DNA of 64,000 bases. Origin: Patescibacteria group bacterium. GTDB taxonomy: Bacteria; Patescibacteriota; Patescibacteriia; UBA9934. The stretch is taken from contig JBAZWW010000002.1 of the NCBI GenBank assembly GCA_041660165.1, forward strand, positions 132,074-196,073. Reading direction: 5' to 3'. The position numbers and the translations under genes were made by a program. Numbering within the stretch: the first letter of the stretch is position 1; each line of letters opens with the position of its first letter. Below, piece by piece: positions 3,781 to 44,841 of the stretch. The notes under the pieces were generated by a model that made no database searches, was not told where the DNA came from, and saw nothing but the letters and a program-made list of their open reading frames with translations.

Positions 3781-3820
3781 GGGGGGTGCTCATGGGAAAC
3801 CATGAGCGCCCCTCTTTTAC
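3781..3820 (+). terminator. Intrinsic terminator after the M23 peptidase gene
   Basis: ggggggtgctcatgg-gaaa-ccatgagcgcccc stem followed by TCTTTT. Confidence 0.55.
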
Positions 3821-6898: not shown

Positions 6899-6906
6899 GC
6901 TGGCGT

Positions 6907-8496: not shown

Positions 8497-8513
8497 CGTG
8501 GTAAAATACTGTC

Positions 8514-8954: not shown

Positions 8955-8956
8955 TT

Positions 8957-9652: not shown

Positions 9653-9653
9653 T

Positions 9654-11567: not shown

Positions 11568-11570
11568 GCT

Positions 11571-25851: not shown

Positions 25852-27552
25852 CTAGAAACTGAGCGTGTGGCCGGTGATGGGGAGGGCTTGGATGTACGTG
25901 CCGTTGATGTTGGTTGCGCCTGTGTCAGCGTCATCCCAGAGGATGGCGGGGAACACAATGGTATTTGCGGTCAGCTCGCTTGGAATAGAAGCCTGGATGA
26001 TGTCGTCTGTGCTGGCGCCGGACGTATCAAGGAAAAGTGCGAACGTGGTAGCGCTTGAGCTTTGCGGGAGAATGACGTCCGAAATGCCAAGCGCGGCGAA
26101 TCCTACTGGTGCTGTACTTCTGCCACAGGGAGTTCCATCCACCGCTAGGAATGCGGCATCACTGAACATTTCAGTCACACCATTTGAAAGATTTTTTAGC
26201 TGCCACCGTGCTCCAGAGCCAAGTTTGCCAGCTCCACATCTGTTCCAGCCTGTTCCTCCAGCATCTGAGGAGCTCAGTTGGATCATGACGCGGTTTAATT
26301 TCACGAAACCTCCCGGAGCCACGTTCACGTTAAAGCGGAGCACCTCAGCAAAGGCACCGGGTTGGGTTGGTGCTGTGGTGCCGGACGGGGAGGACGTAGA
26401 GAGCGTGAAGGCCGGGCGAGTCTTCCTGAGTACCATGGTGTTCGCATGAAGGTTGGATTCCAGCCACGCACCGGTTATGACGCGTCCGGAGGTGCGTGCC
26501 GTAGCTATAAAGCCCCCGGTTGTACCAAAGTCCAGATCAAATCCGAAGGTCATGTTTGAACGAGCAGGGCTGGTGGCCGTAATGGGAGCAGTATCAACAG
26601 CCACATCCACAACTGAACTGCTTGACGCGCCGGCCGGTACGTACATGTTAAGGCCAGTGAACTTGGCCGAGTGGTTTGAGAGCATGGCGCTCCTCACTAC
26701 CGTTGCGCCAAGCTGATCGAGATATTTGATTTTAACCGCCTGAATGGCCTGGTCATCACCCACATTTTTCAAGGTGAGGGTTTGGATGGTGAACGGCTCG
26801 TTCGTAGCGGTGAAAACGTAGGAGGCGGTGTTAACAAGTGGGGTGCCGGCTAGCGCGATATCTGCGCTCGGTGTGGTGCCGGAAAGTGAAGCGCTCAGCG
26901 TACCTGAATCACGGAGGGTGATGGAAACAGACGGTGGAACGTTTACGCCCGGGTCCGTTGCTCCGCCTATCTGCACTCGGCTTCCGCTCATTTGCCGTCC
27001 CGTGTAATCCTTTGCGGAAACGCTGGCATCATTCTTGAGCGAGAAAGCGTAAATGTCTGGATTGGTTCCGTCCACGGGAACGCTGGCAAAGGAACAGTTC
27101 ACGCTGTAATTGGCGCTCGTGTTGGCTTTGAGGATAATTGGCAGGCCTGTGAATGAGACGTTACCTAGGCGGTCCACAACTCGGCCCTGGCCAAGCGGAT
27201 GGCCTTGGCTGTCATTCAGAGCGCAGAGGCTGATGTGATCTGCCGGAGCAACGTTGTTTTCAATACTCGCAAATGATCCGTCAGTATCCGCGGTTACGGC
27301 AAACGTCAGGCGGTCAACGCGCACTGCCTGGTTTTGTGCCTGGAGGTTTACCAGGAAGACCGGTTCAAGCGTGGCGCCAGCCACGGTGGCGTGCGAGGTG
27401 AGCGCACTGCCAGTTTTGATAACCAGGATTGAGCCCGTGTTATTCGCCGCGATCATGAATCCGGCCGCTGCCGCTAGCCCGGCCGCCGCCATGATGGAAA
27501 GTCCCACTAACGTATTGGTTGTCGTTTGGACAACAGTGGATGATTTTGTCAT
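25852..27552 (-). CDS. Secreted Thr/Ser/Gly/Ala-rich surface protein, paralog 1 of 5
   Basis: Conserved N-terminal signal ...LAGLAAAAGF(M/L/V)IA, a beta-rich low-complexity body, and conserved C-terminal ...G(G/H)TL(V/S)(F/Y). Confidence 0.8.
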   Translation of the reverse strand: MTKSSTVVQTTTNTLVGLSIMAAAGLAAAAGFMIAANNTGSILVIKTGSALTSHATVAGATLEPVFLVNLQAQNQAVRVDRLTFAVTADTDGSFASIENNVAPADHISLCALNDSQGHPLGQGRVVDRLGNVSFTGLPIILKANTSANYSVNCSFASVPVDGTNPDIYAFSLKNDASVSAKDYTGRQMSGSRVQIGGATDPGVNVPPSVSITLRDSGTLSASLSGTTPSADIALAGTPLVNTASYVFTATNEPFTIQTLTLKNVGDDQAIQAVKIKYLDQLGATVVRSAMLSNHSAKFTGLNMYVPAGASSSSVVDVAVDTAPITATSPARSNMTFGFDLDFGTTGGFIATARTSGRVITGAWLESNLHANTMVLRKTRPAFTLSTSSPSGTTAPTQPGAFAEVLRFNVNVAPGGFVKLNRVMIQLSSSDAGGTGWNRCGAGKLGSGARWQLKNLSNGVTEMFSDAAFLAVDGTPCGRSTAPVGFAALGISDVILPQSSSATTFALFLDTSGASTDDIIQASIPSELTANTIVFPAILWDDADTGATNINGTYIQALPITGHTLSF

Positions 27553-27561
27553 ATTTTGCGC

Positions 27562-29283
27562 TTAGTATACCAGCGTTCCGCCAACGATGCTTGGGGAAGT
27601 AATGTATTGGCCGTCAATGTTCGTGACGCCGGTATCCGCATCTGTCCAGCGGATGGAGTCGTTATTTGTGGCGTTGGCTGTCAGCTCGTCTACAATTTCA
27701 AGACGTATTGTGTCATCTTGAGAACTGCTGGCGCCGGTGCTGTCAAACCAGACTGAGAGCGCCTTTGCCCCAGAAGATGAGGTAGGAATGGCTAAGAGAC
27801 CGCCAGTGGCTTGATTGAAGGTCACGATGGCATATGTAGCGATGCCTGGATTTGAAGCGTTACACGCTGTTCCGTCAGCGGACAGGATGCGCCAGTTGCT
27901 GGCATCGCCAAGAGCAGTGCCCGTACTGAAGTCACGAATTTGCCAGCGGTTTGCATCACCCCCAAAGTTACTGCAAGCGTTCCAGCCCCGGGCCTCATTG
28001 CTCGTGCTCATGAGGCGGAACATGATTTGCTGGAGCGCCACCGGACCGCCGGGAGCTGTCCAAATGTTAAACCTAAGGACCTCGCTCCGGCCTGGAACTG
28101 AGGCTCCGGATGGCGAGGCAGAGGAGAGCGAAAGATAGGGGCGAGTTTTTCTGAGGGTGAGCGTGTCTGCATGGATGCTTGCACCCATTGAGGACTCAGT
28201 GACAGTGTGTCCAGAGGTTTGAGCCACGGCCTTGAAGCCGTTAGCGGTGGTGAAATCAAGATCTAGTCCGAAGATCATGCCTGAGCGAGCCGAACCGGTT
28301 GCAGTAATTGGCGCGGTGTCTACAGCTACGTCGATAACAGCTTTGTTAGAGGCGCCGGCCGGTACATAGGCGTTAAGACCGGTGAATTTCGCGAGGTGAT
28401 TTGAGAGAGTGGCCGTTTTCACAACTTGCGCGCCAAGCTGGTCAAGGTATTTGATCTTGACTGTTTGCACGGCCGTATCATCGCCAGTGTTTTTGAGGGT
28501 GAGCGTCTGGATGATGAACGGTTCGTTCGTGGCGCTGAAGGCGTAGGAGACAGTGTTGACGAGCGGGGTGCCGGCCAGGGCGATGCCTGTGCCAGGGGTG
28601 GAGTAAGGACCGGCACTGAGCGTCCCTCCGTCCCGGACCGTCACCGCAATGTTAGGCGGGAAGTTGACGCCGGGATCATTTGGACCGCCAATATTGATGC
28701 GGTTTCCGGGAAGAATCGCTCCTCGATCAGTGTGTGCATCAACGCTAGCATCGGTTTTGATGGAGAAGGCGTAAATGTCTGCATTAGCGCCATCCGTTGG
28801 GACATTGGCAAAGGTGCACCAGAGCCTGAACGTTCGGGTGACATTGGCTGGAATTGTTTGGGCAAGATTGGTAAAGGAAATATTTCCCTGATTATCAGGA
28901 ATCTGGCCTTGGCCAACTAATGCGCCTTGGGCGTTGTTCAAGACGCAGGAGCTGAGATGGTCACCTGCGTTAATGTTATTTTCAATGCTCGAAAAAGTTC
29001 CGTCAGTATCGGCCGTGGCCGTGAACATCAGACGGTTAACGGTGACCGGTTTGTTCTGCGCCAGCAGACTGAAGCTAAGAACCTGTTCAAATGAACCAGC
29101 CACGGTGGAGTGCGAAGCTGGATTGGGCAACGCTTTAATGACCAGGACAGGTAGTGTATTCCTGGAAGCGATCAGAAACCCCGCCGCCGCCGCTAAACCA
29201 GCGAGAGCGACTATCCCGATGCCGATTTTAGTCGAGGTTTTTGTTTGAGTTTGTGTCTGTGTAGCCGTTGATAGGTTGTCCAT
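27562..29283 (-). CDS. Secreted surface protein, paralog 2 of 5
   Basis: N-terminus MDNLSTATQTQTQTKTSTKIGIGIVALAGLAAAAGFLIA; about 75% identity to paralog 1 over the central region. Confidence 0.8.
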   Translation of the reverse strand: MDNLSTATQTQTQTKTSTKIGIGIVALAGLAAAAGFLIASRNTLPVLVIKALPNPASHSTVAGSFEQVLSFSLLAQNKPVTVNRLMFTATADTDGTFSSIENNINAGDHLSSCVLNNAQGALVGQGQIPDNQGNISFTNLAQTIPANVTRTFRLWCTFANVPTDGANADIYAFSIKTDASVDAHTDRGAILPGNRINIGGPNDPGVNFPPNIAVTVRDGGTLSAGPYSTPGTGIALAGTPLVNTVSYAFSATNEPFIIQTLTLKNTGDDTAVQTVKIKYLDQLGAQVVKTATLSNHLAKFTGLNAYVPAGASNKAVIDVAVDTAPITATGSARSGMIFGLDLDFTTANGFKAVAQTSGHTVTESSMGASIHADTLTLRKTRPYLSLSSASPSGASVPGRSEVLRFNIWTAPGGPVALQQIMFRLMSTSNEARGWNACSNFGGDANRWQIRDFSTGTALGDASNWRILSADGTACNASNPGIATYAIVTFNQATGGLLAIPTSSSGAKALSVWFDSTGASSSQDDTIRLEIVDELTANATNNDSIRWTDADTGVTNIDGQYITSPSIVGGTLVY

Positions 29284-29291
29284 AGATTTTT

Positions 29292-31343
29292 TTAGAAGAC
29301 CAGCGTTCCGCCGTTCACGGTGAGGTAATGAACCAGGTACGCGCCCCAGTATTCCTGGTAGCTTGTGCCCACGCCAGGTGTACCGTCATCCTGCCAGAGA
29401 ACAGATCCTGGCAGACGAACCACGTTTTGGCCGGTGATAGGACGCAGAATGTTCGTACCCAAGTAGCCCCTGGCAAAACTGACATCATTCCCGTTGACCG
29501 CAGTGACGAGCGCCCTTTCCTCGGTGGCCTCGCACGTGGTGTTCGTGCCGGAGAAACAGGCAGTGTCTCCTACGGAGAAGCCGGCTCCTTTGGCCAGGGT
29601 GATGATGGAATCGTTTCTTGTTAGGCTGGCGTCGTTAATGGTTGATCCCGGAAGGAAGGTGCTGACGATGGGGTCAGCAACGATGTCAAAACGTACGGAG
29701 TCGTCGCTTGATGAGCTGGCGCCTGTAGAGTCAAAGTACAGCGCGTATGCGTACGATTGGCCTCTTGGAATGACCTGCGGAACGGGGAAGGCGATACCAG
29801 CAAAGCCAAGTGTTGCACCCGTGCTATCACAATTTGCTCCGGTGGTTTTGTAGAGCGTCCAGTTGTTATCAGCTGTATCAAGAGTTTGCGAAGTGCTCTC
29901 GAGCGTCAGGTTATAGAGGTCAAAATCGCTGGCGGTGGTGACGCCTGAGGTGGCGTCTGTATCGCAGTCATTCCAATGTGTTGTTGGGTAAGTGTTATCC
30001 GTTGAACTTATTTTGAACATCAGCTTTGAGAGCACGGCATCTTCATTTACCCCCGCGGTTACGCTGAAACGAATGACTTCGCCTCGGCCGACAACTGCAC
30101 TGCCCGAAGGAGAAGAGTTACTGAACGAAACGGTCGGTTTCGTTTCGCGAACCACGAAAGTAGAAATTTTGTCCGTGCTGAATGCGTCATCGCCAATAGG
30201 ATTCTGTGCCCTATCATCAAGCACCGTGCCGGATGTCATGCCGACAACTTTGAAATTGTCCTTATTGGCTTTATCTACGAATAATCCCATACGGACCTTC
30301 TCGTTTGAGGTCGCTAGTCCGCCTGAGTTGTGGTCGCTTGTTGGTACGTCGATAGATACGGTGACATCCTTGGGATAGCCCTCAGCTACGTACATGTCGA
30401 GTCCGCTAAACTTGGCTTCATTGCCGGACATGGCCGTGGTAGCTGAGCCGGTTGTGCCGTCAGCTTTTGGATATTGGATTTTGACAAGTGAAATATTGTT
30501 CGTGTAGGCATTTGAATCAGCTGTCCCCGTATCATCTTCTGCCTGTTCTTCAGAGAAGGTCAGCGTTTGAACGTTAAATGGTTCACGCGTTGCGGTGAAG
30601 CGGTATTTTGCCACTTCATTGTTAGCGCTTGGAGCCAGGAGAATATCAGCAATCGGCCAGTTCGGAGCGGATTCAATCGCCAGGTCCCCATGTTCAATAA
30701 CCGTCACATTCACTCGCCGGCCATTCAGATTGATGCCCGGATCACGCGGTCCGCCAAGGTGGATTCTTTGTTCAGGAATGGCCGTGCCGTTATTGACTTG
30801 TTCGGCGGTCACAGATCCGTTCCCTATGAGCTGGAGCGCAAACATGTCCGGGTTGCCATTGAGCGGGGCGGTGGCTGGGATGTCGCACTTCACAATGTAA
30901 GAATTGACGGAGTTTGTGCTTACCGCCAGGGCGACGTTGCCGAACGTCAGACGCTGTTGCGCATCAACTGGTGCCGGGCCGGCCATGAGCGTGGAACCGT
31001 TATAGAGGCTACAGCTGGTGACGAGCTCCGATAGGTGAAGATCGTTTTGGATAGTGGTAAATGATTTATCATCATCAGCTAGGCCGGTGAGGACAAGTTT
31101 TGTCACCATGATGTCCTTATTTTTTGCCGAGAGTAAAAAGTTCAGCACATTGGCTCCCCGTGCTCCGCCAACTGCCACTTGGCTTGGAACCGCAGATCCT
31201 AACTGGACACTCAGCACCGGCTCGCTGGTGGTTGCGATCAGAAATCCGGCCGCCGCGGCTAATCCGGCCAGAGCGATGACCCCGATGCCAACTTTGGTCG
31301 AGGTCTGTGTTTGCGTCTGCGTGGCTGTTGATATTTTTTTCAT
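29292..31343 (-). CDS. Secreted surface protein, paralog 3 of 5 (longest, 683 aa)
   Basis: N-terminus MKKISTATQTQTQTSTKVGIGVIALAGLAAAAGFLIA; C-terminus NGGTLVF. Confidence 0.8.
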   Translation of the reverse strand: MKKISTATQTQTQTSTKVGIGVIALAGLAAAAGFLIATTSEPVLSVQLGSAVPSQVAVGGARGANVLNFLLSAKNKDIMVTKLVLTGLADDDKSFTTIQNDLHLSELVTSCSLYNGSTLMAGPAPVDAQQRLTFGNVALAVSTNSVNSYIVKCDIPATAPLNGNPDMFALQLIGNGSVTAEQVNNGTAIPEQRIHLGGPRDPGINLNGRRVNVTVIEHGDLAIESAPNWPIADILLAPSANNEVAKYRFTATREPFNVQTLTFSEEQAEDDTGTADSNAYTNNISLVKIQYPKADGTTGSATTAMSGNEAKFSGLDMYVAEGYPKDVTVSIDVPTSDHNSGGLATSNEKVRMGLFVDKANKDNFKVVGMTSGTVLDDRAQNPIGDDAFSTDKISTFVVRETKPTVSFSNSSPSGSAVVGRGEVIRFSVTAGVNEDAVLSKLMFKISSTDNTYPTTHWNDCDTDATSGVTTASDFDLYNLTLESTSQTLDTADNNWTLYKTTGANCDSTGATLGFAGIAFPVPQVIPRGQSYAYALYFDSTGASSSSDDSVRFDIVADPIVSTFLPGSTINDASLTRNDSIITLAKGAGFSVGDTACFSGTNTTCEATEERALVTAVNGNDVSFARGYLGTNILRPITGQNVVRLPGSVLWQDDGTPGVGTSYQEYWGAYLVHYLTVNGGTLVF

Positions 31344-31350
31344 ATTTGTA

Positions 31351-33087
31351 TTAGAAGACCAGCGTCCCGCCGGTAAGGGGAAGCGTTTTTACGTTTAGAC
31401 TGTTGGCATTGCACTGGAGACCGGCGTCACACCAGATGAGGTCAAGCGAGCTGTAGTTGGCCGGGGAGTAGGGGATACTCGCGCTTACGGAGTCTCCTGG
31501 TTTTGCTCCTGCGGTGTCCAGCATGAGCGAATAGGTGTGGGTAGTCCCGGCGCTGACAAGGAACTCGCTATGGAGCGAAGAATCCAGGAAATTTACGTTG
31601 ATGGTGTCTACCACGGCGTTATTATCGTATCCGCAATGGTGTATTCCATCAGGCGTCATACCAAAGAGCTCCGTGGTGAAGGTGTGCCCGGTTGTGAGAT
31701 CAGTGACCGTGGCTGGCCGTCCGTTGGTGGTGAACGGTCCGCACGAATTCCATCCGCTGTTCGTGGTGTCTGTTGAGTGGATGTTGAACCTGAGATTAGT
31801 AACCGTAACATCTCCCGTTGGCGCCGCCGAAACATTAAAGCGCAGAATTTCGCTATAGCCATGGGCATCTGGTCGAGCCGGTCCAGAGGGCGAGGCGGAG
31901 CTCAGTGTAATCGTCGGGCGAGTTTTGCGCAGGATGAAGGTTCCGCTTGGTTGAAAATTACTCATGCTCGATTCCGTGACGGTAAACCCGCTCGTGGCGG
32001 CCACCGCTTGGAAGCTTCCGGGGGCAGTAAAATCCATCGTTATGCCCAATTGTCTGCCGGAATCATATGGCGTAATGACTGGCGGGGTATCAACGCCCAC
32101 GTCAATCCTGGCCGCGTTGGCTGCTCCGGTGGGCACGTACATGTCTAGGTTTGAAAACTGGAGAAAGTGGTTTGAGAACGTGCCTGTTTTTGTGACCGCG
32201 ATTCCTGATTGATTGTTATAGGTGAGGGATACAAGCTTGATAGCTGCGTCATCCCCCCAATTCTTCAGCGTGAGTTTTTTGACGGTGAAGGTCTCATTTA
32301 CGGCGGTGAGTGAAAAATCGGCCACTCGGTTATTGTTCGTGTTGCCAATGATAATATCCCCGACTGGGGAGAAGCGGTAATCGTTATCTGCGCTCAGTTT
32401 TCCGTGATCGCGGACGGTGACGGTGGTCGGACCCACAAAATTATGAAGAATATTCACGCCGGTGTCCTGTTCATTCCCAACATAAATCCGACTGCCGGGT
32501 AGGGAATTTCCTTGAGGACCAAGCGCAGTGACATAGCTTGGATCGCCAATGAGTGCAAGGGCCATGATGTATTTACCGGTGGCAGAAGAATTTGCCAGAT
32601 CACAGGAGACGGTGAATGGAGTGACGGAATTTGCCGGGAGTGAAAATCTATCACTGAAGGTGAGTATATTTCCATTTGAAATGACGGGCGCCGGGCCAGC
32701 CCAAACGGCTCCTGTACTATTATTCTTGAGGACGCATGAGGTGACAAGATCGCCCCCCGAGAGGTCATTCTCTATAGTGGCAAAATTGCCATCACTGTCA
32801 AAGAAGGCCGCGAAGGATAGTTTTTGTACGGTGATACTGGCATTTTTTGCTTGAAGCTTTATGCCAAGGATGGGCTCATTTTGTGCACCCATGATTGCGC
32901 TGTGGGCCGTGGGTTCAGGAGCGCTAGTCATGATGAGAAGCGGGTGTAGTATGGAAATCGGCCGTTTTTCTGACGCTATGACAAACCCCGCGGCCGCCGC
33001 TAGTCCGGCCAGGCCAAGGAGGGCAAGGCCGACTTTGGTTGAAGTCTGCGTTTGGGTTTTGACGGTCGTGGCTGACGAAGTTTTCAT
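31351..33087 (-). CDS. Secreted surface protein, paralog 4 of 5
   Basis: Start placed at the internal Met giving MKTSSATTVKTQTQTSTKVGLALLGLAGLAAAAGFVIA; the ORF track extends to 33180. Confidence 0.75.
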   Translation of the reverse strand: MKTSSATTVKTQTQTSTKVGLALLGLAGLAAAAGFVIASEKRPISILHPLLIMTSAPEPTAHSAIMGAQNEPILGIKLQAKNASITVQKLSFAAFFDSDGNFATIENDLSGGDLVTSCVLKNNSTGAVWAGPAPVISNGNILTFSDRFSLPANSVTPFTVSCDLANSSATGKYIMALALIGDPSYVTALGPQGNSLPGSRIYVGNEQDTGVNILHNFVGPTTVTVRDHGKLSADNDYRFSPVGDIIIGNTNNNRVADFSLTAVNETFTVKKLTLKNWGDDAAIKLVSLTYNNQSGIAVTKTGTFSNHFLQFSNLDMYVPTGAANAARIDVGVDTPPVITPYDSGRQLGITMDFTAPGSFQAVAATSGFTVTESSMSNFQPSGTFILRKTRPTITLSSASPSGPARPDAHGYSEILRFNVSAAPTGDVTVTNLRFNIHSTDTTNSGWNSCGPFTTNGRPATVTDLTTGHTFTTELFGMTPDGIHHCGYDNNAVVDTINVNFLDSSLHSEFLVSAGTTHTYSLMLDTAGAKPGDSVSASIPYSPANYSSLDLIWCDAGLQCNANSLNVKTLPLTGGTLVF

Positions 33088-33092
33088 AGATT

Positions 33093-34823
33093 TTAGAAGA
33101 CCAGCGTTCCGCCAGTGACAGGAACCGCGTACACGCCGGCGCCGTCCAGGAGGTCTTGGCCGTGAAGTGTTTCGCGCCACTGCAGGTTATGCAGAAGAGG
33201 GGAGAGATTGGCGGGGTCGGTCGGGATGCTGACGGAAATCTTGTCATCGAGTGACGAGCTGGCGCCCGTGGTGTCCACCGTCAGTGAGAAAGTGTGTGTT
33301 GTGCCTGCGGGAATGTTGTTATTAAGCAAGTTAACCAGGGCATAGACAACTGGGTCTTGTTGCCTATCATCTGGCCCGCAGCGTGTTCCGGAGTTGTCCG
33401 CTATGTACCAAGATAAAGCATTAGTTTCGACGTTTCCTGACGTTATGTCCTTAAGCTCCCACTTGGAAACATCGCCAAGTTTGTTGCCGTACGTTCCGCC
33501 CCCGCAACTTGCCCAATAGTTATTTGCATTATCGGTCGCGTTAATTTTGAACGTAAATTGCGACATGCTCACATCTCCGCCTGGATCAGCCGCTACGTTG
33601 AATCGTAATACCTCCTCGCGTCCAGGAATTGAAGCGCCAGATGGTGAGCTGGTGCTGAGAGAGACGGTGGGTTTGGTTTTGTAAAGCTTGAAGGGATTCC
33701 CGTAAAGGCTGGAGCCCATGCCTGCTTCAGTTTGCGTGTGACCAGATGTGTTGGCGACTGCGCTGAAACTTCCGGGTGTGGCAAAATCAAGCGAGGCTTC
33801 AATGGTCATGCCTGAGGTGGCACCGGTCGTGGCGTTGATGGCCGGGGCGCTGACGGAGACGTCGAGTAGCTGGGCATTAGCGGCGCCGGCTTGAATTGGC
33901 ATGGCCATGCCGGTGAATCTAGCGACGCCATTTACAAACGCCATGGAGTTTGTGCCAAGAGTTCCATCAGGGTATCTGTAGGAAAGGTAGGCGTACGCCA
34001 CGGCTTGCGCTTGGCCTGCTTGTTTGATGGTAAGTGTCCGAACGGTGTAATCCTCATTTGTGCTTGAAAGAGTGAATGAAGCAACTTTGGTTGGCCTGGT
34101 TTGATCACCGGCTACCACAATGCCAATCCACGGCGAGGTGGCGCTCATTCCTGCGCTCAGCACGCCGTAATCTTTTACGGTAACCGTGGTGGCGAGTGCG
34201 GTGTTCACGCCCGGGTCTGTTTGCCCGCCAAGGTAAATTCGACTGCCGGGAATGGAATTTCCTTGAGGACCAACCGCGGTAACATCAGCATCATTTTTGA
34301 GCGAAAAGGCGTAGATGTCTGGCGAGCTGCCGTCAGGATAGGCATCGGAAAAAGTACAACGAAGACGCATGGTTTTTCCGCTATTTGCTGGAATGTTGAG
34401 GCCAAGATTGGTAAAAGTGACGCGTCCGGAACTATCGATAATTTGTCCTTGGCCAATGAGATGGCTTGACGCGTCGTATATTCCGCACAGCGAGATGTGG
34501 TCAGCGGGGGATACGTTGTTCTCCACGCTTGCAAACGTTCCGTCAGTATCGCTAGTTGCGGTGAACACAAGGCGGTTAACCTTCATGGCGATATTTTGTG
34601 CCTGGAGCGTGAAGCCAAGAACGGGATCGAGTTCTGTTCCGCTCGTGATGACATGGGACGCAGGCTGAGGCGTCATTCTGATGATTAGCGTTGGCTGAGC
34701 GGCGGAGGCGATCACAAATCCTGCAGCCGCTGCCAGGCCGGCCAGGCCAAGGAGAGCCACGCCGACTTTGGTTGAAGTTTGCGTTTGGGTTGTTGTTTGA
34801 ACCGCTGTTGATGTTGGTTTCAT
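33093..34823 (-). CDS. Secreted surface protein, paralog 5 of 5
   Basis: N-terminus MKPTSTAVQTTTQTQTSTKVGVALLGLAGLAAAAGFVIA; C-terminus TGGTLVF. Confidence 0.8.
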   Translation of the reverse strand: MKPTSTAVQTTTQTQTSTKVGVALLGLAGLAAAAGFVIASAAQPTLIIRMTPQPASHVITSGTELDPVLGFTLQAQNIAMKVNRLVFTATSDTDGTFASVENNVSPADHISLCGIYDASSHLIGQGQIIDSSGRVTFTNLGLNIPANSGKTMRLRCTFSDAYPDGSSPDIYAFSLKNDADVTAVGPQGNSIPGSRIYLGGQTDPGVNTALATTVTVKDYGVLSAGMSATSPWIGIVVAGDQTRPTKVASFTLSSTNEDYTVRTLTIKQAGQAQAVAYAYLSYRYPDGTLGTNSMAFVNGVARFTGMAMPIQAGAANAQLLDVSVSAPAINATTGATSGMTIEASLDFATPGSFSAVANTSGHTQTEAGMGSSLYGNPFKLYKTKPTVSLSTSSPSGASIPGREEVLRFNVAADPGGDVSMSQFTFKINATDNANNYWASCGGGTYGNKLGDVSKWELKDITSGNVETNALSWYIADNSGTRCGPDDRQQDPVVYALVNLLNNNIPAGTTHTFSLTVDTTGASSSLDDKISVSIPTDPANLSPLLHNLQWRETLHGQDLLDGAGVYAVPVTGGTLVF

Positions 34824-34826
34824 AGG

Positions 34827-35822
34827 TTAGGTTTTGGCTGTTCTATTTTTGGCGGCTTCCGTGTGTGCTCGCCACTGGTTGACTACGTCCTCAACGTCTT
34901 CTTTTTGCACGGCGGGATGTTTTGTCTGTTTAGCCGCTCCGTGGACCAGACCTAAGTGTTTGCCGTGGTGTTTGTCCGAGTACTCGATAGAAACTTTGGC
35001 CGCTGCTTCATCTATCAGGTCAATCGCTTTGTCCGGCAGGAACCGCCCGCGAATATACTTGTCAGAGAGCCTGACGGCTTCTTTTAACACCTCGTCAGGA
35101 ATCGTCACCTTGTGAAACGCCTCATACTCCGGCCTGAGCGTTTGCAGCATTCGTACCGCCTGTTCAGGCTTTGGCTCATCCACGAGTACTGGTTGGAAGC
35201 GTCTGTCGAGGGCCGCATCAGTCTTGATGTACTTGGCGTACTCGTCCCAGGTGGTGGCCCCAATAATATGCAAATCGCCCCTGGCTAGGGCGGGTTTGAA
35301 GATATCCGTGACGTTCAGTGCTCCTTCCGTTCCGCTGGCCTGGACGATCATGTGAACCTCGTCAATAAACAAAATAGTTTCGCGGGATTCTTTTTCCAGC
35401 TCGGCCAAAAAGTCCTGCAGGCGTTTTTCAAGTTCTCCCCGGAACTTCGTTTCGCCGAGTACAGCTGCCAGATTAAGCGCATAGAGCGACTTATCTCTGA
35501 GCGAATCCGGCACGTTGCCATCAGCTATGCGTTGGGCGAGTCCGTGAACAATGGCCGTTTTGCCTACGCCAGGCTCGCCAATCAAGAGGGGATTGTTCTT
35601 TGATCGGCGCATCAAAATATGAATAGTCCGGTCAACTTCCGGTTCCCGTTCGCTAAAAGGATCAAGTTTTTTGTCTTTTGCCTGCTTTACTAAATCTGTA
35701 AAATAATCCTGCTTACGGCTTTTTTTGCCGGCAGTCTTGGGTTGATATTTATTCTGATAAATAATACTGCCTCCGATGATCGCTAAAACCATCGCTATGC
35801 CCCAGAGGACATTTGGATTCAT
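34827..35822 (-). CDS. Membrane-anchored AAA+ ATPase homologous to the D1 nucleotide-binding domain of ClpB/ClpC only (no N-domain, no D2)
   Basis: N-terminal TM helix [15 protein letters not shown], Walker [12 protein letters not shown], Walker B ILFIDEVH, arginine-finger region [11 protein letters not shown]. Its stop lies 3 nt from the ATG of paralog 5. Confidence 0.7.
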
Positions 35823-35870
35823 AAGCCAAGTTATTCCTGGCTATTATAACATCAAAAAATGCCCGCCTAG

Positions 35871-37232
35871 CTACTTTCCTAGCTCCTTTACATGTTTTGT
35901 ATTCTTGGGCGTCAACGATGCGGGCATGCCGAGTCTTTCGGCCTCCTTTAGGCGCCTCTCTAGGAAGGGGACTGAGCGGACTTCACCGCCCAAACCAAGC
36001 TCGCCAAGGATAATCATATCGGCAGGGAAGGTCTTTTCGTTGATCGCCGAAATGATGGCTGCGGCCACCGCTAGGTCAGCGGCGTGCTCGTCAATTTTTA
36101 TTCCGCCGACTACGTTCACATACACATCTTGATCATACACTTTGATGCCGGCGCGTTTAGAGATGATCGCGAGCAACATTTGGAGTCTCGACGCATCATA
36201 ACCGCTGGTTCGGCGAACAGGATTCGGGAAGAAGCTCTTGTCCACGAGCGCTTGGATTTCGACCAGGAATGGTCTCGAACCCGCCATGATACACGTCACG
36301 ACCGAGCCCGGCCCCGGCACCCGTTCTTTCAGAAACCTCGCCGAGGGATTTTCAACGGCGATCAGGCCCTTTTCAGTCATTTCGAAAACTCCGATCTCCT
36401 CGGTGCTCCCGAACCGGTGTTTTTCTGCTCGTAGAATTCTATAGGCCGAGTCTGGATCGCCTTCGAGTGTGAGCACGGTATCGACTAAGTGTTCGAGCGT
36501 TTTCGGTCCGGCGATAGATCCTTCCTTGGTTACTTGGCCGATAATAAGCACAGGAATCCCCGTCGATTTCGCAAATCCTATTAGTTCGGTGGTGGCCGCT
36601 CGCACGGCCGTTGGTGTCCCCGGGAACGAATCAGCCTCGGCCACCATCATCGTCTGGATTGAATCTACAATAACGATACTCGGTTTCTCTGCCTTGGCCG
36701 CTGCCACAATCGCGCCCACGTCAACCGCGTTCGAGAATAGAATGGTCGAAGGATTTATGCCGAGTCTCTCAAAGCGCATCCGTACCTGTCCCTCAGATTC
36801 CTCGCCGGAGGCGTAGTAGGACGTCACCATCCTGAGCGAGAGCGAAGGATCCGACTTTCTCTTGTGAGGGTCGGACCCCTCGGTTGCAACCTCGGGGCGG
36901 GAGGGGATCGAAGTGAAGGATGTTGCGATCTGTGCTACGAGCGTCGATTTTCCAATTCCAGGCTCGCCAGCCAGCAAGGTCACTGAGCCTGGCACAATGC
37001 CTCCGCCAAGCACTCGATCAAGTTCGGATAATCCTGTAGAAACAGGGGAGACCATGGCCCCTGTTGCGTCGCCTAGTTTGAGGGTTTGTGCGGGTTTGCT
37101 CGACGATGTTTTTTTGGATAACGAAGACAGCGCCGTGGCGCCGTCCTCCGAAAGCGTGCCCCATTTCCCGCATTCCAGGCAACGGCCGGACCATCTCAGG
37201 ACTTGCGTGTCGCAGTGTGAACAGCTGAACAT
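35871..37232 (-). CDS. radA: DNA repair protein RadA/Sms
   Basis: N-terminal C4 zinc finger CSHC...CLEC, Walker A GEPGIGKST, and a Lon-like C-terminal domain. It carries an extra ~26 aa between the Walker A helix and the GEES motif. Confidence 0.9.
   Translation of the reverse strand: MFSCSHCDTQVLRWSGRCLECGKWGTLSEDGATALSSLSKKTSSSKPAQTLKLGDATGAMVSPVSTGLSELDRVLGGGIVPGSVTLLAGEPGIGKSTLVAQIATSFTSIPSRPEVATEGSDPHKRKSDPSLSLRMVTSYYASGEESEGQVRMRFERLGINPSTILFSNAVDVGAIVAAAKAEKPSIVIVDSIQTMMVAEADSFPGTPTAVRAATTELIGFAKSTGIPVLIIGQVTKEGSIAGPKTLEHLVDTVLTLEGDPDSAYRILRAEKHRFGSTEEIGVFEMTEKGLIAVENPSARFLKERVPGPGSVVTCIMAGSRPFLVEIQALVDKSFFPNPVRRTSGYDASRLQMLLAIISKRAGIKVYDQDVYVNVVGGIKIDEHAADLAVAAAIISAINEKTFPADMIILGELGLGGEVRSVPFLERRLKEAERLGMPASLTPKNTKHVKELGK
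36828..36905. repeat. Copy C of the palindromic repeat family, inserted in frame inside radA
   Basis: ATCCTGAGCGAGAGCGAAGGATCCGAC...GTCGGACCCCTCGG matches the intergenic copies at 43880 and 49091. Its right end has diverged. Confidence 0.6.
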
Positions 37233-37235
37233 AAT

Positions 37236-38798
37236 TTACGGTGCTTTATCGCTGACACAGACGTCTTCTTTGAAGTTCCAGCGCCCGCAAGTGGCCGGGG
37301 GATTATGTGGTGTCCCGCCTCTGGTGTACGCAGAAGTGGTGTTGGTAATAGAACAAGAAGAAGAAACCTTCTTGTCATTGATTTCAAAGTGCCAGGCCTC
37401 TGCGCTTAATCTGCAGAAACCAGCGGCCACCATAGCTTGCATGAGTTTCACTTGGCAGTCCACATCTGCGGTGAAATTCCCGCTTCCTTCGCACCAGACA
37501 TCTACGGCCACGCGGGAGGTATGCGGGCAACGGCTTAAATCCGCATGGGACACAATCCCGCTGATGATGAGGTTGGGATCCGTTACTCCGGCCAGATCTC
37601 CTACAAGAGTGTATCTCCCGCCCACTTTTTTCACTACAGATGAATCCGCGGGGTTGCAGGTAACCGGACTGCAGACTCCGCCATGCGCCAGACAGCCCTT
37701 ATAAAAGAGCGTGGCCTGTTTAGTGAGATCGCGGTCTGCGGAACTAACCACCACGTTTTTGCCGGTCATGGTAAAGAAAGCGTCCGCCGCCTGGATGAGC
37801 ATGGGCCCGCCTTCAGGATCAATGTTAATCGGTCGATGGCCGCTGATGGCGTTAATGATGTGCGTTCCCTCAACTGGCGCGAAGGCTCCCGTGAGTGCAG
37901 AGTTTGCTGTTCCTTGTTCTTCTTCTTCAACTCCCGATGTATCTAGCGATACTCCGCGTATATCAATAAGCGACAGCGGACCAAAGGTCACCGTGGCGGG
38001 GTCAAGCAGGAAAGCGATATCGTAGGCAGCGAAAAGAAGGATAAGGCCAATGACCGCGTTTTTGATTCTCGTCTTTGCCTTTTCTACGCGCTTGGCGCTG
38101 CCACCAGAAATAGTATATTCGAGTCCGCCAATCATGAGCATGACCACCGCAATGAGGGACATGGCTACGAGCAGAAATCTGTACACGGCTTGAATGTAGA
38201 GGCCCAAGAAGTTTGAGGTGACTGTTCCTGTCTCGGTATTCTGAAAAAGCGAGTTGGCAAAATCTAACCCCGGAATAGGCACGTTGAGAATCGGAATGAC
38301 TGGATCGCGTTTTGGCGCGATGGGTTCCGCCAGCGGGGGAGCTGAGGGAGCGGCGATGCACTTGAAAGATATGAGGCCGCCAACGCCACAGGTTGTTTGG
38401 CAGGCGTCTTCTGTGAGGGGCCCGAAGAGTCTTACATCCTGTGAAGCAATAGAAGCGCGGCACATACAACGAAAGTCCGCCGGATTTGTAGTACAAACGC
38501 TGTATGTAGTGCGGTTTTCGAGCGCGGTGTTAGCACCGAGACTTAGTTCCGTTCCTATGCATTCGTTGAATTGGTAGGAAACGCCATTCAAATTATCGCA
38601 ATCCGCTTCACAATCAATAGCCGTATCGGTTGTGGTGGTGATTATGTCTTCTGGTCCGGCAGGCTGACCGCCGGTGTCGAGAAAGCACATGCATTCGTTA
38701 CTGTCGGGATTGTTTGTGCAATCAAGCGCCGCAAATGAAAGCTTCGGGATGAAGAGGAGGAAGAAGCCGGCAACCATGATCGAAAGAAGATATTTCAC
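37236..38798 (-). CDS. Secreted protein with Cys-rich N-terminal region, one internal TM helix, and a C-terminal M15/VanY-like (LAS) peptidoglycan peptidase domain
   Basis: Signal peptide MKYLLSIMVAGFFLLFIPKLSFA, many Cys, TM segment LLVAMSLIAVVMLMIGG...VIGLILLFAAY. HxxxxAVD and WHFE motifs typical of M15 peptidases. Confidence 0.6.
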   Translation of the reverse strand: MKYLLSIMVAGFFLLFIPKLSFAALDCTNNPDSNECMCFLDTGGQPAGPEDIITTTTDTAIDCEADCDNLNGVSYQFNECIGTELSLGANTALENRTTYSVCTTNPADFRCMCRASIASQDVRLFGPLTEDACQTTCGVGGLISFKCIAAPSAPPLAEPIAPKRDPVIPILNVPIPGLDFANSLFQNTETGTVTSNFLGLYIQAVYRFLLVAMSLIAVVMLMIGGLEYTISGGSAKRVEKAKTRIKNAVIGLILLFAAYDIAFLLDPATVTFGPLSLIDIRGVSLDTSGVEEEEQGTANSALTGAFAPVEGTHIINAISGHRPINIDPEGGPMLIQAADAFFTMTGKNVVVSSADRDLTKQATLFYKGCLAHGGVCSPVTCNPADSSVVKKVGGRYTLVGDLAGVTDPNLIISGIVSHADLSRCPHTSRVAVDVWCEGSGNFTADVDCQVKLMQAMVAAGFCRLSAEAWHFEINDKKVSSSCSITNTTSAYTRGGTPHNPPATCGRWNFKEDVCVSDKAP

Positions 38799-38800: not shown

Positions 38801-39436
38801 TTATTTGAGGATAGCGTCTATGGCGCGTTTGAGAACGCTGGTGGACAGATCGCCCGAATAGCGGACGTTATTGAGATAGATGGTTGGCGTGGTAGTTATT
38901 TGCAGGAGCGTGCCTTCATCATAGCCCCTTTGGACAAGCGGGAGCGTTTCTTGGCTCGTGAAGCACCGGCTGAACTTATTCACATTCAGTTTGAGGTCCG
39001 TGGCAATTTTTGTATAGAGGTCCGTGCCAAGGAGCGACTGATTCATCATGAGGGCCGAATGAAATTCCCAGAACTTTTTTTGCTTTTCCCCGCATCGGGC
39101 GGCAATGGCGGAAGAAATTGCTTCACCATGCGCGCCGGAGTTCGGCATATCCTTCCACACAATCCGCAGTTTATCCCCATACTGATCGCGCAGATCTTTG
39201 AGGGTGGACTCGAACAAGGCGCAGGCTTGGCACTGATAGTCTCCGTAGTTCACAATAGTGACCGGTGCATTTTGTGGTCCAAGCGAAGGATCAGCAATAG
39301 TAATCTCCGGAACGGTAGGCGCTTGCTTGTCCGTGAAGGTGATGTGGTTTCTGACGGGAAGCGAGAGAATGAAAAAAACAAAGATGACCGCTGTTACTCC
39401 CGCCAAGATGGCAAATCCCTGCCAGAAGTATTTCAT
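38801..39436 (-). CDS. DsbA/BdbD-family thiol-disulfide oxidoreductase, membrane-anchored
   Basis: N-terminal TM helix and thioredoxin CQAC active site. Confidence 0.75.
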   Translation of the reverse strand: MKYFWQGFAILAGVTAVIFVFFILSLPVRNHITFTDKQAPTVPEITIADPSLGPQNAPVTIVNYGDYQCQACALFESTLKDLRDQYGDKLRIVWKDMPNSGAHGEAISSAIAARCGEKQKKFWEFHSALMMNQSLLGTDLYTKIATDLKLNVNKFSRCFTSQETLPLVQRGYDEGTLLQITTTPTIYLNNVRYSGDLSTSVLKRAIDAILK

Positions 39437-40662: not shown

Positions 40663-40666
40663 ACAT

Positions 40667-41574: not shown

Positions 41575-43842
41575 TTATAGCACGATGACGCTTCCTTTTT
41601 TGCTAACCTTCACCTTATAGCTCCCGTGTTTTCGGCCGATGTTTTCTAAAACCTTCTCGGCGAGTGGTCTTTCAATCTGTTCTTCAATCACTCGGCGTAG
41701 GTCTCTGGCGCCGAATTTCTTATTCACGGCTTTGGCGAGTATAGGCAGTGCTCGCGCTTCTGAAGTCAGGGCAATCCCGTGATTTTTTAGACGCTGGCCA
41801 AGCTCGGCGAGTTCTTTTTTGGCAATTTGCATCAAGTGATCCTCGTTCAACGGCCTGAAGAGACAGACCCGGTCAATGCGGTTCAGGAGCTCGGTCTTGA
41901 ACGAGTCTTCGAGGATATTGCGTACGTCGAGTTTCTCACTTTTCTCGTTTGTGAAGCCAACCGCTCCGCGTTCAAATCGTTCGCGTCCGGCGTTGCTCGT
42001 CATAATGATGATCGTGTTCCTGAAATTCACCGGCGCGCCCGTGGCATCGGTGAGGGTTCCTTCGTCGAGTATTTGGAGCAGGAGGTGATGGATTTCTCTA
42101 TGTGCCTTTTCTATTTCGTCGAACAGAATAACGGCGTGGGGTTTGGCTTTTACGGCATCGGTCAATAATGCTTGATCCCTATAACCAACGTATCCGGGAG
42201 GGGAGCCGATGAGTTTGCTGACCGTGTGCGGTTCAGCGAATTCGCTCATGTCCAGACGGATGAGCGACTTGTTGTCGCCGAATACTTCCTCGGCTACGGC
42301 CTTGGCGAGTGCAGTTTTGCCCACACCCGATGGGCCGACAAAAAGAAACGAGACGAGCGGACGTTCCGGTTTGGTGAAGCCAAGTCTGGCGCGGGTGATC
42401 GCACCAACGACTGACTCAACTGCATCATCCTGCGCTACCACACGACGGGCTAATCTCTCGCCGAGAGTTTTCAGTTCGAAGGCTCCGTGGACATTCAATC
42501 GTTCAACCGGAATGCCCGAAATTCGCGAGGCTACTTTGGCAATGAACTGCTCGTCGATCGCGGTTGTACTTGAGCTCTTGCCTGCACTGCCGGCTTCATC
42601 AAGGAGATCAATCGCCTTATCGGGAAATTTTTTGTGCGGGAAATAGCGCGCCGTGATTTCAATGATCGCTTTCAAGGCCTCGGCCGAGTACTTTACGGCA
42701 TGGTGTTTTTCATATCCACCAGCCAGGCCTTTCAAGATGACGAGCGTTTCTTCGGCGCTTGGTTCCCCTACGTTAATACTCGCGAATCTTCGAGCGAGTG
42801 CGCCGTCTTGCTCGATATGTTTTTTGTATTCCTCGCGCGTAGTGGCGCCAATGACGCGGATTTCTCCACGGGCCAGCGCGGGCTTGAAAATGTTTGAGGC
42901 ATCAAGCGCTCCACCGCCAGCACCGGCGCCCATGATGGTATGGAGCTCGTCAATAAAGAGGATTGCTTCTTTGTGTTCCTTGAGATCATCAATCACATCA
43001 AGCAAGCGCGCCTCAAAATCGCCCCGGTACATGGCGCCAGCCACAATAGACGCCATGTCTAGCATGTAAATTTTCTGGCCCTTGAGCGCCGGGGGAGCGG
43101 TGTCCTCCACAATGCGTTTCGCTAAGCCCTCAACAATGGCCGTTTTGCCAACGCCGGGATCGCCAAGCAGAAGCGGATTGTTTTTCGTTCGCCGGCAAAG
43201 AATGTGCGAGAGCCGGTCAATTTCTGCACTTCGGCCAACCAGTGCATCCGCTTTTTTCACTCGGTCAGGGGCAGTGAGTTCTACGCAGAAAAATTCAAGC
43301 GCGGTTTTTTCTTCAGCCTCATTTGCATCATGCGTCTCTCCGCAGTGCTCGCACTTTTCAACTGGCTTTGCTTCAACCTTGGCCGGTGTTTGCTTTTGAA
43401 AGGCGGCGGTTAAGTGGCGCTCAAGAAAAGCGTGCGTTACTTTATTGCCCTCAAGAAATTTGTTGATTTCCGGTTGTTTGAGCGACAGGATGCCGTAGAG
43501 CAGATGTTCGGTACCGATCATTTGATGGCCGTGCATGGAGGCGGTGAGGAGCGCTTTTTCAACTGCCCGGTGTGATTCCTGGGAGAGGTGCGGACTGATG
43601 TCTTTCGGTTCGTGTTTCTTAAGCGCCACCGCCGGCATTCCGCCCATGAACTTCATGACGGATTCGCGTTGAATCCCCGCGTGCCCAAAAACCGTTTCTG
43701 CAAAAGAACCCGGCTCCGTGGTAATGGCCCACAGCAAATGGCGGGGCGTAATGAACTGACTTTCCTCATCCAGCGCAAAAGCCAGCGCTCTAGTGAGCGA
43801 GGTTTTGAGATGTTCAGAGAATTTGTCGAATGCTTCGGACAT
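41575..43842 (-). CDS. clpC: Clp ATPase with two nucleotide-binding domains (ClpC/ClpB-family chaperone)
   Basis: Clp N-domain repeats, D1 [16 protein letters not shown]2 GPSGVGKTALAKAV, and the sensor motif GARDLRRVIE; 755 aa. Confidence 0.8.
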   Translation of the reverse strand: MSEAFDKFSEHLKTSLTRALAFALDEESQFITPRHLLWAITTEPGSFAETVFGHAGIQRESVMKFMGGMPAVALKKHEPKDISPHLSQESHRAVEKALLTASMHGHQMIGTEHLLYGILSLKQPEINKFLEGNKVTHAFLERHLTAAFQKQTPAKVEAKPVEKCEHCGETHDANEAEEKTALEFFCVELTAPDRVKKADALVGRSAEIDRLSHILCRRTKNNPLLLGDPGVGKTAIVEGLAKRIVEDTAPPALKGQKIYMLDMASIVAGAMYRGDFEARLLDVIDDLKEHKEAILFIDELHTIMGAGAGGGALDASNIFKPALARGEIRVIGATTREEYKKHIEQDGALARRFASINVGEPSAEETLVILKGLAGGYEKHHAVKYSAEALKAIIEITARYFPHKKFPDKAIDLLDEAGSAGKSSSTTAIDEQFIAKVASRISGIPVERLNVHGAFELKTLGERLARRVVAQDDAVESVVGAITRARLGFTKPERPLVSFLFVGPSGVGKTALAKAVAEEVFGDNKSLIRLDMSEFAEPHTVSKLIGSPPGYVGYRDQALLTDAVKAKPHAVILFDEIEKAHREIHHLLLQILDEGTLTDATGAPVNFRNTIIIMTSNAGRERFERGAVGFTNEKSEKLDVRNILEDSFKTELLNRIDRVCLFRPLNEDHLMQIAKKELAELGQRLKNHGIALTSEARALPILAKAVNKKFGARDLRRVIEEQIERPLAEKVLENIGRKHGSYKVKVSKKGSVIVL

Positions 43843-44839: not shown

Positions 44840-44841
44840 GT

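Follow-up and report, generated by a model that had tools for sequence, protein, structure and literature searches.

A predicted membrane-anchored, D1-only Clp protein family of Patescibacteria is encoded next to putative surface proteins with a threonine-repeat N-terminal tail

A 64,000-nucleotide stretch from the genome of a Patescibacteria group bacterium (GenBank assembly GCA_041660165.1, contig JBAZWW010000002.1, positions 132,074 to 196,073; here named the window, with positions counted from its first letter) carries a gene for an AAA+ protein of 331 amino acids that joins one N-terminal transmembrane (TM) helix to the D1 module of Clp/Hsp100 proteins (here named TM-D1). It is directly followed by an array of five paralogous genes encoding predicted surface proteins, each with a short threonine-rich tail in front of its TM helix. 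In this study, we examined the TM-D1 protein, its family, and these partner proteins and found a strong, ancient, and unanticipated gene linkage between the family and proteins with a tail of the type (T-x)6. The TM-D1 gene and its features are located as follows; helix and disorder assignments refer to an AlphaFold2 (AF2) model and its predicted local distance difference test (pLDDT) values.

34827..35822, minus strand: TM-D1 AAA+ gene, with ATG start, 331 amino acids plus stop codon
35745..35816, minus strand: N-terminal TM anchor, amino acids 3 to 26 (helix with pLDDT of ~90; hydrophobic segment kept in the family)
35703..35744, minus strand: flexible basic linker between anchor and D1, approximately amino acids 23/27 to 40 (pLDDT below 50 at amino acids 27 to 34)
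35556..35579, minus strand: Walker A motif GEPGVGKT, amino acids 82 to 89
35436..35447, minus strand: pore-1 loop KFRG, amino acids 126 to 129
35358..35363, minus strand: Walker B residues D154-E155
35199..35204, minus strand: arginine pair R207-R208 in the arginine finger region "DRRFQP"
34956..35168, minus strand: D1 small (lid) domain, amino acids 219 to 289 (AAA_lid_9; AF2 helices 219 to 237, 243 to 256, and 262 to 289)
34830..34955, minus strand: C-terminal segment, amino acids 290 to 331, which completes the D1 small domain, stops at the D1/D2 boundary, and has no M-domain insert

The only Pfam matches of the 331-amino-acid protein are AAA (amino acids 79 to 191) and AAA_lid_9 (amino acids 219 to 286, E = 2.7e-27). 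Alignments to NCBIfam models are confined to the D1 part of ClpB (positions 153 to 402 of 853), ClpA (162 to 435 of 734), and also ClpV (TssH), and the scores of 347, 326, and 324 bits, respectively, reach about one-third of the curated equivalog cutoffs (1232, 993, and 885 bits) and thus stay below all of them. The closest solved structures by sequence are the D1 domains of Bacillus subtilis ClpC (278 bits) and Staphylococcus aureus ClpC (~275 bits). The AF2 model, built from 75 family sequences (pLDDT 85), consists of the TM helix (3 to 26), a disordered stretch (27 to 34), the D1 large domain (~36 to 213), the lid (219 to 289), and a C-terminal helix (307 to 330), and its top folds in a Foldseek search of the PDB were D1 of ClpC, ClpC1, and ClpB. 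In the C-terminal segment, the motif "V..ED.EDVV.QW" aligns as the counterpart of the final element of the ClpA/ClpC D1 small domain, and G291, H294, V305, D309, W317, and H320 are conserved.

A preliminary description of this DNA, made from its letters alone, had proposed one N-terminal TM helix and a near-complete Clp D1 module that ends shortly after the small domain and has no N-domain, M-domain, or D2. All of this held up. Full-length family members keep the helix with hardly an exception, both parts of D1, large and small, are complete with intact catalytic residues according to Pfam, NCBIfam, alignment, AF2, and Foldseek, and alignment to ClpA/ClpC D1 places the end at the D1/D2 boundary. 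Pfam gave no match to Clp_N, AAA_2, or the ClpB D2-small domain, and the N terminus is a TM helix; NCBIfam and alignment agree, and the M-domain coiled coil is absent from the D1 small domain. Also, there is no (I/L/V)G(F/L) ClpP-docking loop within the 331 amino acids (in class I Clp proteins, this loop sits in D2), and no Pfam match to Peptidase_M41; the single TM helix is the only one.

Residue conservation was counted on an alignment of 113 family members. In all of them, G82, G85, V86, G87, and K88 of Walker A, D154 and E155 of Walker B, sensor-1 residue T190, and the R207-R208 pair are invariant, as is a 12-residue lid motif. The pore-1 loop follows the consensus (K/Q)(Y/F)RG with invariant R128 and G129, and its aromatic position holds tyrosine in 80, phenylalanine in 25, and histidine in 3 of the 113 proteins. 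The invariance of the Walker A lysine, the Walker B acidic pair, the sensor-1 threonine, the arginine pair, and the pore loop points to selection on ATPase and threading functions. The TM-D1 protein is thus predicted to be a catalytically intact D1 motor with ATPase activity.

Protein searches yielded more than 120 clusters of homologs of 290 to 360 amino acids with 49 to 98% identity to the TM-D1 protein, all from Patescibacteria or "Candidatus Uhrbacteria" metagenome-assembled genomes (MAGs) and with generic annotations only, namely "AAA family ATPase" or "ATP-dependent Clp protease ATP-binding subunit." Clustering at 50% identity reduced the family to about 10 representatives among 1.8 billion proteins. 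As judged from these searches, it is a small family that is lineage restricted within Patescibacteria. Nearly every full-length member has a strongly hydrophobic segment from about residue 5, followed by a K/R-rich stretch, an arrangement conserved in more than 110 proteins, and the TM sequence itself is variable; that both elements are kept despite this variability fits a selected anchor of N-out/C-in orientation. In the window protein, ~5 to 7 residues outside and the K/R-rich stretch after the helix imply the same predicted topology. The linker between anchor and D1 is rich in glycine, serine, and lysine and measures 14 to 20 amino acids, with a median of 17, in 15 family members. A metagenome scan with the family alignment, whose patterns were too general, picked up 2 family loci, and nearly all its other matches were full-length Clp loci. 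Five loci (L008, L011, L016, L018, and L019) are TPA-assembled MAGs that carry the Patescibacteria-type gene and synteny under the title "uncultured Gammaproteobacteria bacterium" and are probably mislabeled.

In a neighbor-joining tree of D1 regions, all TM-D1 proteins form one clade, and the D1 domains of full-length ClpC-like and ClpB-like proteins fall outside it, including those from Patescibacteria and the ClpC encoded in the window itself. The latter, at 41575..43842 on the minus strand, is a protein of 755 amino acids with Clp_N, D1, D2, and D2-small domains. The preliminary description had already pointed to this separate full-length gene in proposing that TM-D1 is an extra copy and not a piece of the housekeeping gene. 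We came to the same conclusion, since the identity between TM-D1 and the resident D1 is 45%, the clade is separate and monophyletic, and no frameshift was seen; N-domain and D2 queries from the resident ClpC gave no remnants beside the TM-D1 gene in tblastn searches. A recent duplication of the resident ClpC D1 is ruled out by the same identity value and separate clade.

The TM-D1 clade, whose proteins measure about 330 to 390 amino acids, has two branches, the window type with ~330 amino acids and a sister subclade with ~385 amino acids (loci L011 to L021, e.g., L012:6938-8095 and L018:6600-7757). According to the alignment, the sister proteins carry a helical, coiled-coil-like insert of ~55 amino acids exactly at the position of the ClpB/ClpC M-domain. 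Furthermore, they end in "...EWxGIPVEKL," which we take to be the ClpC D1/D2-boundary motif. The insert and the ClpC-like ending argue for stepwise reduction: D2 was likely lost from a ClpC-like ancestor, in which a TM helix also took the place of the N-domain, and the alignment suggests that the window lineage lost the coiled coil afterwards.

The gene neighborhood was compared across 26 independent family loci from genomes and assemblies, with the window included and duplicates removed. Genes with the tail motif were located by a six-frame periodicity scan, with a distance limit of 2.5 kb from the AAA gene. Such a gene was present at 18 of the 26 loci, with two more weak cases. Each encodes a short T/K/Q-rich N-terminal tail directly before an Ala/Gly-rich TM helix. 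The partner gene is mostly the immediate neighbor, lies upstream or downstream in same-strand, divergent, or convergent orientation, and is found in both subclades. A control scan around full-length Clp genes, at loci that are mostly not from Patescibacteria, gave 5 spurious matches in 1.5 Mb. The preliminary description had called for a search for orthologs and a look at their neighbors, and this search is what yielded the >120 TM-plus-D1 homologs and the linkage. The conserved family, the M-domain-like coiled coil of the sister subclade, and the linkage to surface-protein genes go beyond that description. In the window, exactly five proteins carry the motif, all in the array that abuts the AAA gene, and the other exported proteins have ordinary signal sequences.

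25852..34823, minus strand: array of five paralogous genes for proteins of 566 to 683 amino acids
33093..34823, minus strand: partner 1, a predicted type-II-anchored surface protein of 576 amino acids, with its ATG 3 nt after the stop codon of the AAA gene
34767..34823, minus strand: predicted cytoplasmic T-x tail of partner 1, amino acids 1 to 19 (motif from position counts over 25 N termini)
34698..34766, minus strand: Ala/Gly-rich signal-anchor helix of partner 1, amino acids 20 to 42, with the "GLAAAAGF" block
31351..33087, minus strand: partner 2, a paralog of ~578 amino acids counted from MKTSSATTVKTQTQTSTK, with 40% identity to partner 1 and the same type of N terminus
29292..31343, minus strand: partner 3, a paralog of 683 amino acids
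27562..29283, minus strand: partner 4, a paralog of 573 amino acids
25852..27552, minus strand: partner 5, a paralog of 566 amino acids

Partner 1 begins with MKPTSTAVQTTTQTQTSTK, followed by VGVALLGLAGLAAAAGFVIAS. To describe the tail, 25 partner N termini were aligned on the start of the TM helix. The tails are 11 to 26 residues long (median, 17) and consist of 33% threonine and 22% lysine or arginine, with 83 basic and 7 acidic residues in total. Their last 12 residues follow a strict two-residue period: positions -12, -10, -8, -6, -4, and -2 are threonine, sometimes valine or isoleucine, and the odd positions from -11 to -1 hold lysine, glutamine, serine, or arginine, which gives the consensus (T-x)6 right before the membrane. 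The positive charge argues for a cytoplasmic tail and hence for a predicted type-II (N-in/C-out) topology of the partners. The TM helices contain 46% alanine plus glycine, compared to 24% in the AAA anchors, and the "GLAAAAGF" block is the best-conserved part of the partner alignment, with A31, A32, A33, and G35 invariant. Inspection by eye gave no consistent signal peptidase site after the TM helix across the paralogs, and a G|F-type prepilin cleavage motif is absent from the partner leaders.

The AF2 model of partner 1 (pLDDT 75) has an all-beta body with three immunoglobulin (Ig)-like beta-sandwich domains, for which Foldseek listed integrin alpha thigh and calf domains, adhesins of the MSCRAMM type (microbial surface components recognizing adhesive matrix molecules), pilins, and an archaeal S-layer protein. 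Conserved cysteine pairs in the partner alignment fit an extracytoplasmic body. Neither the body nor the N-terminal motif belongs to a family in Pfam, NCBIfam, or PADLOC; partner 1 itself has no Pfam or NCBIfam match and only 11 detectable homologs. Across loci, the partner bodies range from 96 to 940 amino acids, some with CARDB or He_PIG Ig-like domains and some of low complexity. Since they are variable and fast evolving, the conserved element that the partners share is the tail plus TM helix. Two loci encode very small tail-bearing proteins of 96 to 112 amino acids (L167:7887-8225 and L169:4689-4979), the ectodomains of which consist of repeats of the G-Y-V-P or P-G-Y type. This indicates that the tail-plus-TM module is joined to quite unrelated bodies.

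Besides the tail-bearing proteins, a polytopic membrane protein of 630 to 690 amino acids adjoins the AAA gene at 4 of the 26 loci (L005:6050-7942, L006:5790-7793, L167:5963-7873, and L169:5954-7855). In L167 and L169, its gene begins before the AAA gene has ended, and the next gene in L005 and L167 encodes a small tail-bearing protein. The protein has the conserved motifs SPW, GFGFDPFIHRAAE, and HPL and a C-terminal soluble domain; 18 members gave no Pfam match, and there was no NCBIfam match and no PDB match by sequence or profile. From its layout alone, we suspect a GT-C-like glycosyltransferase. In L016 (8288-8959) and L018 (7769-8404), the gene directly downstream of the AAA gene encodes a small Peptidase_M50 (site-2-protease-like) protein of 211 to 223 amino acids; in L016, it is located between the AAA gene and a tail-bearing gene. 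A bPH_2 membrane protein is encoded upstream in L012 and L017. As minority associations, these three are hints only. The remaining neighbors vary among loci and include radA, the gene for CTP synthase, and cell-division genes.

Two further observations concern single loci. In L016, the otherwise unrelated open reading frames at 3806, 6935, 8288, and 12320 share the starting peptide "MMKSCGVDILGM," which points to a repeated DNA element of at least ~36 nt upstream of or overlapping the gene starts. L006 contains a reverse transcriptase gene (RVT_1) beside a bAvd gene (11188-12613), the signature of a diversity-generating retroelement, 2 to 3 kb from the AAA gene.

In the window, every gene from 44839 down to 25852 lies on the minus strand. 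Upstream of the TM-D1 gene, this run contains the full-length ClpC/ClpA-like gene named above and the following genes, together with one tentative promoter.

43967-44839, minus strand: HtpX-like M48 peptidase
39439-41566, minus strand: two proteins for which no family is named
38801-39436, minus strand: DsbA-like thioredoxin
37236-38798, minus strand: T4SS-pilin-domain protein
35871-37232, minus strand: RadA
35843..35851, minus strand: candidate extended -10 promoter TGtTATAAT, read from the sequence within the 48 nt that separate radA from the AAA gene

The candidate promoter was not among the matches of a promoter consensus scan, in which promoter and terminator counts were at background level, and a terminator scan found no convincing terminator between the genes of the run. 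The position of radA directly upstream of the TM-D1 gene, with the full-length ClpC gene another 6 kb upstream on this strand, recurs in the close relatives L004, L007, and L008 and is not kept in the wider family. It resembles the clpC-radA neighborhood of Firmicutes. The resident Clp ATPase is short, has no M-domain, and shows a ClpA-like D1 end ("DEAGSAGKSSSTTAIDEQFIAKVASRISGIPVERL"); its D2 contains a possible ClpP loop, "AVGF." Near the Clp genes lie a LemA/HtpX-like M48 pair (43967-45390) and a full-length RseP (M50 with PDZ; 46840-47922), so that envelope proteostasis genes are concentrated in this part of the window.

Farther away, positions 3863 to 11567 hold a cluster of large membrane or secreted proteins that were assigned to no family, closed by a TraG/VirB4-like P-loop ATPase (9654-11567). 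Together with the T4SS-pilin-domain protein, this cluster points to an apparatus that resembles type IV secretion systems, as is typical of Patescibacteria. Genes that look like defense or mobile elements encode a TOTE-type fusion of an archaeo-eukaryotic primase (AEP) and a helicase (18162-20408), a Type ISP restriction-modification enzyme (53006-56140), and an SNF2 helicase of 1240 amino acids (57863-61585), and the GC content falls to 0.45 to 0.48 from ~52 kb onward. PADLOC returned only generic AAA matches and no defense-system membership.

Functional statements in the following build on sequence, predicted structure, and gene neighborhood, from which we infer topology, hexamer formation, direct threading of the tail, and biological purpose. 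The TM-D1 protein is likely an active motor that is functionally dedicated to the tail-bearing proteins. More tentatively, we propose that it acts as a membrane-tethered, single-ring threading motor, similar to Msp1 or FtsH, that grips and pulls the partner tails, a reading we regard as plausible and slightly short of probable. The protein would represent the D1 half of a ClpC-type Hsp100, with a signal-anchor helix in place of the N-domain and with D2 lost. In Clp proteins, the substrate-entry face is the N-terminal side of D1, so that anchoring at the N terminus turns this face to the membrane, as in Msp1/ATAD1 and FtsH. The N-out/C-in anchor and the ~17-residue linker would hold the entry face of a D1 hexamer at the cytoplasmic side of the membrane, and the dedicated clients would be the co-encoded, type-II-anchored Ig-like surface proteins, whose 12-residue T-x tail may be gripped by the pore-1 loops. 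ATP hydrolysis would then pull on the anchor helix and dislocate it from the bilayer.

Pore-1 loops of AAA+ translocases touch the substrate every two residues, which is a conserved feature (PMC7226402), and with this spacing, six subunits arranged as a staircase would fit the 12 residues of a six-fold dipeptide repeat. Tail and AAA linker are on the same scale, with a median length of 17 each, and a tail of ~17 residues could reach a ring held ~17 residues from the bilayer. The species pulled could be the whole protein, in turnover or quality control, or an anchor stub that would arise after release of the ectodomain by signal peptidase or an M50-type intramembrane protease. As the AAA protein lacks both a protease and a ClpP loop, and as the partners have large ectodomains with predicted disulfide bonds, dislocation of an anchor or stub is favored over retrotranslocation of a whole protein. 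There are precedents for both parts of this scheme: RseP cleaves the type-II protein RsgI, after which Clp unfoldases recognize the freed N-terminal fragment (PMC12203970), and Msp1/ATAD1 extracts membrane proteins as an N-terminally anchored single ring (PMC7018516, PMC9273213).

Several points weigh against the threading model. The gene linkage may reflect a shared process and not a direct substrate relation, and 6 of the 26 loci, 2 of them short contigs, have no tail gene nearby. The lengths of AAA linker and partner tail do not covary (rho = -0.24, p = 0.38), and partner TM helices and AAA anchors do not differ in Kyte-Doolittle hydrophobicity. In several Hsp100 proteins, D1 by itself has weak motor activity or forms hexamers poorly. 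The TM-D1 protein carries neither a protease domain nor a ClpP-docking loop, so that the model does not explain what becomes of a dislocated protein. It also seems energetically implausible that a whole protein with disulfide-bonded Ig domains is dragged back across the membrane. We therefore prefer the version with a stub or processing, for which an M50 gene was found at only two loci. Finally, the recurrent polytopic protein has no place in the model. A wider version, in which the AAA protein and the T-x-tailed proteins, with the polytopic protein and M50 where present, would form an unrecognized machine whose Hsp100-derived ring uses a 12-residue handle, matched to the two-residue pore-loop step, to pull, release, or retract adhesin-like proteins, is more doubtful.

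The same linkage data also support an ATPase for biogenesis or assembly, which we consider unlikely. Here, the ring would hold or unfold precursor N termini for Sec/YidC, or it would power assembly or retraction of a surface fiber or layer together with the polytopic protein, in loose analogy to the ATPase, platform, and leader-bearing subunits of type IV filaments or to the accessory Sec system, which has special signal peptides. The Ig folds of the partners resemble pilins, adhesins, and S-layer proteins, the genes occur as tandem paralogs in small (96 to 150 amino acids) and large versions, and the leader-like tail with its conserved TM helix recalls class III signal peptides; the polytopic gene adjoins the AAA gene at four loci and overlaps its stop codon in L167 and L169. 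However, Clp pore loops move substrates off the entry face, in this case away from the membrane, and this polarity argues against a role in export. There is also no homology to PilB/GspE, PilC, or prepilin peptidase, the polytopic protein is limited to 4 of 26 loci, and the partners have no G|F-type cleavage motif.

Alternatively, the protein could be a general membrane-proximal proteostasis factor, an unfoldase, disaggregase, or helper of FtsH or HtpX with broad clients, and the adjacency would reflect co-regulation only, e.g., in an envelope stress regulon. Its D1 is indeed nearest to those of ClpC-type quality-control unfoldases, six of the 26 loci have no tail gene nearby, and the other neighbors (radA, CTP synthase, cell-division genes) vary. 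In contrast, it is the tail motif to which the AAA gene is linked, and not exported proteins at large; this specificity argues against a purely general role. The linkage also occurs in either orientation and in both subclades, which is unexpected for loose co-regulation; in the window, stop and start codon abut at 3 nt. We therefore regard this possibility as quite unlikely.

It is improbable that TM-D1 is an adaptor and not an autonomous motor, i.e., a D1-only subunit that co-assembles with or caps full-length ClpC and brings ClpC, or ClpC with ClpP, to the membrane. Hsp100 D1 domains mediate oligomer contacts, and full-length Clp genes lie 6 kb away in the window and near the AAA gene in L004, L170, and L171; this is, however, a minority of loci, the identity to the resident D1 is 45% with a separate old clade, and the invariant catalytic and pore-loop residues, needless in a passive tether, argue against one. 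A truncated pseudogene or gene-calling artifact of a full Clp gene, for which only the short length speaks, is refuted by family conservation and can be dismissed, with more than 120 homologs of the same length, a conserved TM helix and invariant catalytic residues, a monophyletic clade, a downstream gene that starts 3 nt past the stop codon, and, in any frame, none of the D2 or N-domain remnants nearby that the preliminary description had named as the sign of one.

A conserved and catalytically intact single-ring, membrane-anchored Clp protein indicates that selection can act on D1 as a motor in its own right. To our knowledge, a ring placed to pull proteins from the membrane has so far been described only for eukaryotic Msp1/ATAD1 and FtsH. 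If the proposal is true, bacteria would possess a prokaryotic, substrate-dedicated counterpart of Msp1, and episymbiotic Patescibacteria possibly a means to remodel their attachment surface. The biology of Patescibacteria depends on host attachment, the presumed clients resemble adhesins or surface-layer proteins, and we know of no biogenesis or turnover pathway for most of their surface proteins. Furthermore, the six-fold T-x repeat of exactly 12 residues could serve an AAA+ pore as a natural "grip sequence," which lends itself to direct tests.

Hsp100/Clp proteins are textbook examples of soluble two-ring machines. With class I members, the TM-D1 protein shares homologous D1 large and small domains, including Walker A and B, sensor-1, arginine fingers, the aromatic pore loop, and AAA_lid_9, but it has a single AAA+ module instead of D1 and D2 in tandem. 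Unlike ClpA, ClpB, and ClpC, it has neither Clp_N nor D2 nor a ClpP-docking loop, and the TM anchor replaces the N-domain; the M-domain of ClpC and ClpB is absent from the window protein, whereas the sister subclade has a short coiled coil at that site. By descent, it is a Clp/Hsp100 D1 protein, and by the features that define class I it is not ClpA, ClpB, ClpC, or ClpV.

In architecture only, TM-D1 resembles Msp1/ATAD1, in which a single AAA+ ring turns its entry face to the membrane and is joined through a short linker to one TM anchor at the N terminus (PMC7018516, PMC9273213). Msp1/ATAD1 acts on single-pass membrane proteins that expose a short tail at one terminus, as presumed here for TM-D1. 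However, Msp1 belongs to the classical "meiotic" AAA clade, whereas all best sequence and fold matches make TM-D1 a Clp D1; the sequence relationship does not extend past the AAA+ core. Msp1 recognizes mislocalized tail-anchored proteins by general features, whereas the presumed TM-D1 clients are encoded beside it and share a specific repeat at the N terminus, and their extraction is a proposal. FtsH is likewise a membrane-anchored AAA+ ring at the cytoplasmic leaflet that starts on short cytoplasmic termini and dislocates its substrates (PMC7226402), but its two TM helices, periplasmic domain, classical-clade AAA module, and fused M41 protease have no counterpart in TM-D1.

The route from RseP or other site-2 proteases (S2P) to a Clp unfoldase, known for RsgI and RseA, also has type-II single-pass clients whose TM helices contain helix-destabilizing small residues, and a Clp-type unfoldase would act on the N-terminal product, as is conceivable at the two loci with an M50 gene beside the AAA gene (PMC12203970). 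It differs in that the tail here has only ~17 residues and no anti-sigma or other domain, the unfoldase is predicted to be membrane anchored with no protease partner, and M50 is restricted to 2 of 26 loci. With regard to type IV filament systems, the AAA, polytopic, and partner proteins gave no Pfam or NCBIfam matches to PilB/GspE, PilC/GspF, or prepilin peptidase. The preliminary description had remarked that membrane-tethered, D1-only Clp proteins are not a standard described class; in agreement with this, neither such a protein nor the tail motif corresponds to a family in Pfam, NCBIfam, or PADLOC, and searches of a literature library, including for Patescibacteria, gave nothing relevant. 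The comparison suggests that the membrane-tethered, single-ring ClpC-D1 family of this one Patescibacteria lineage is an apparently undescribed variant of the Clp/Hsp100 proteins.

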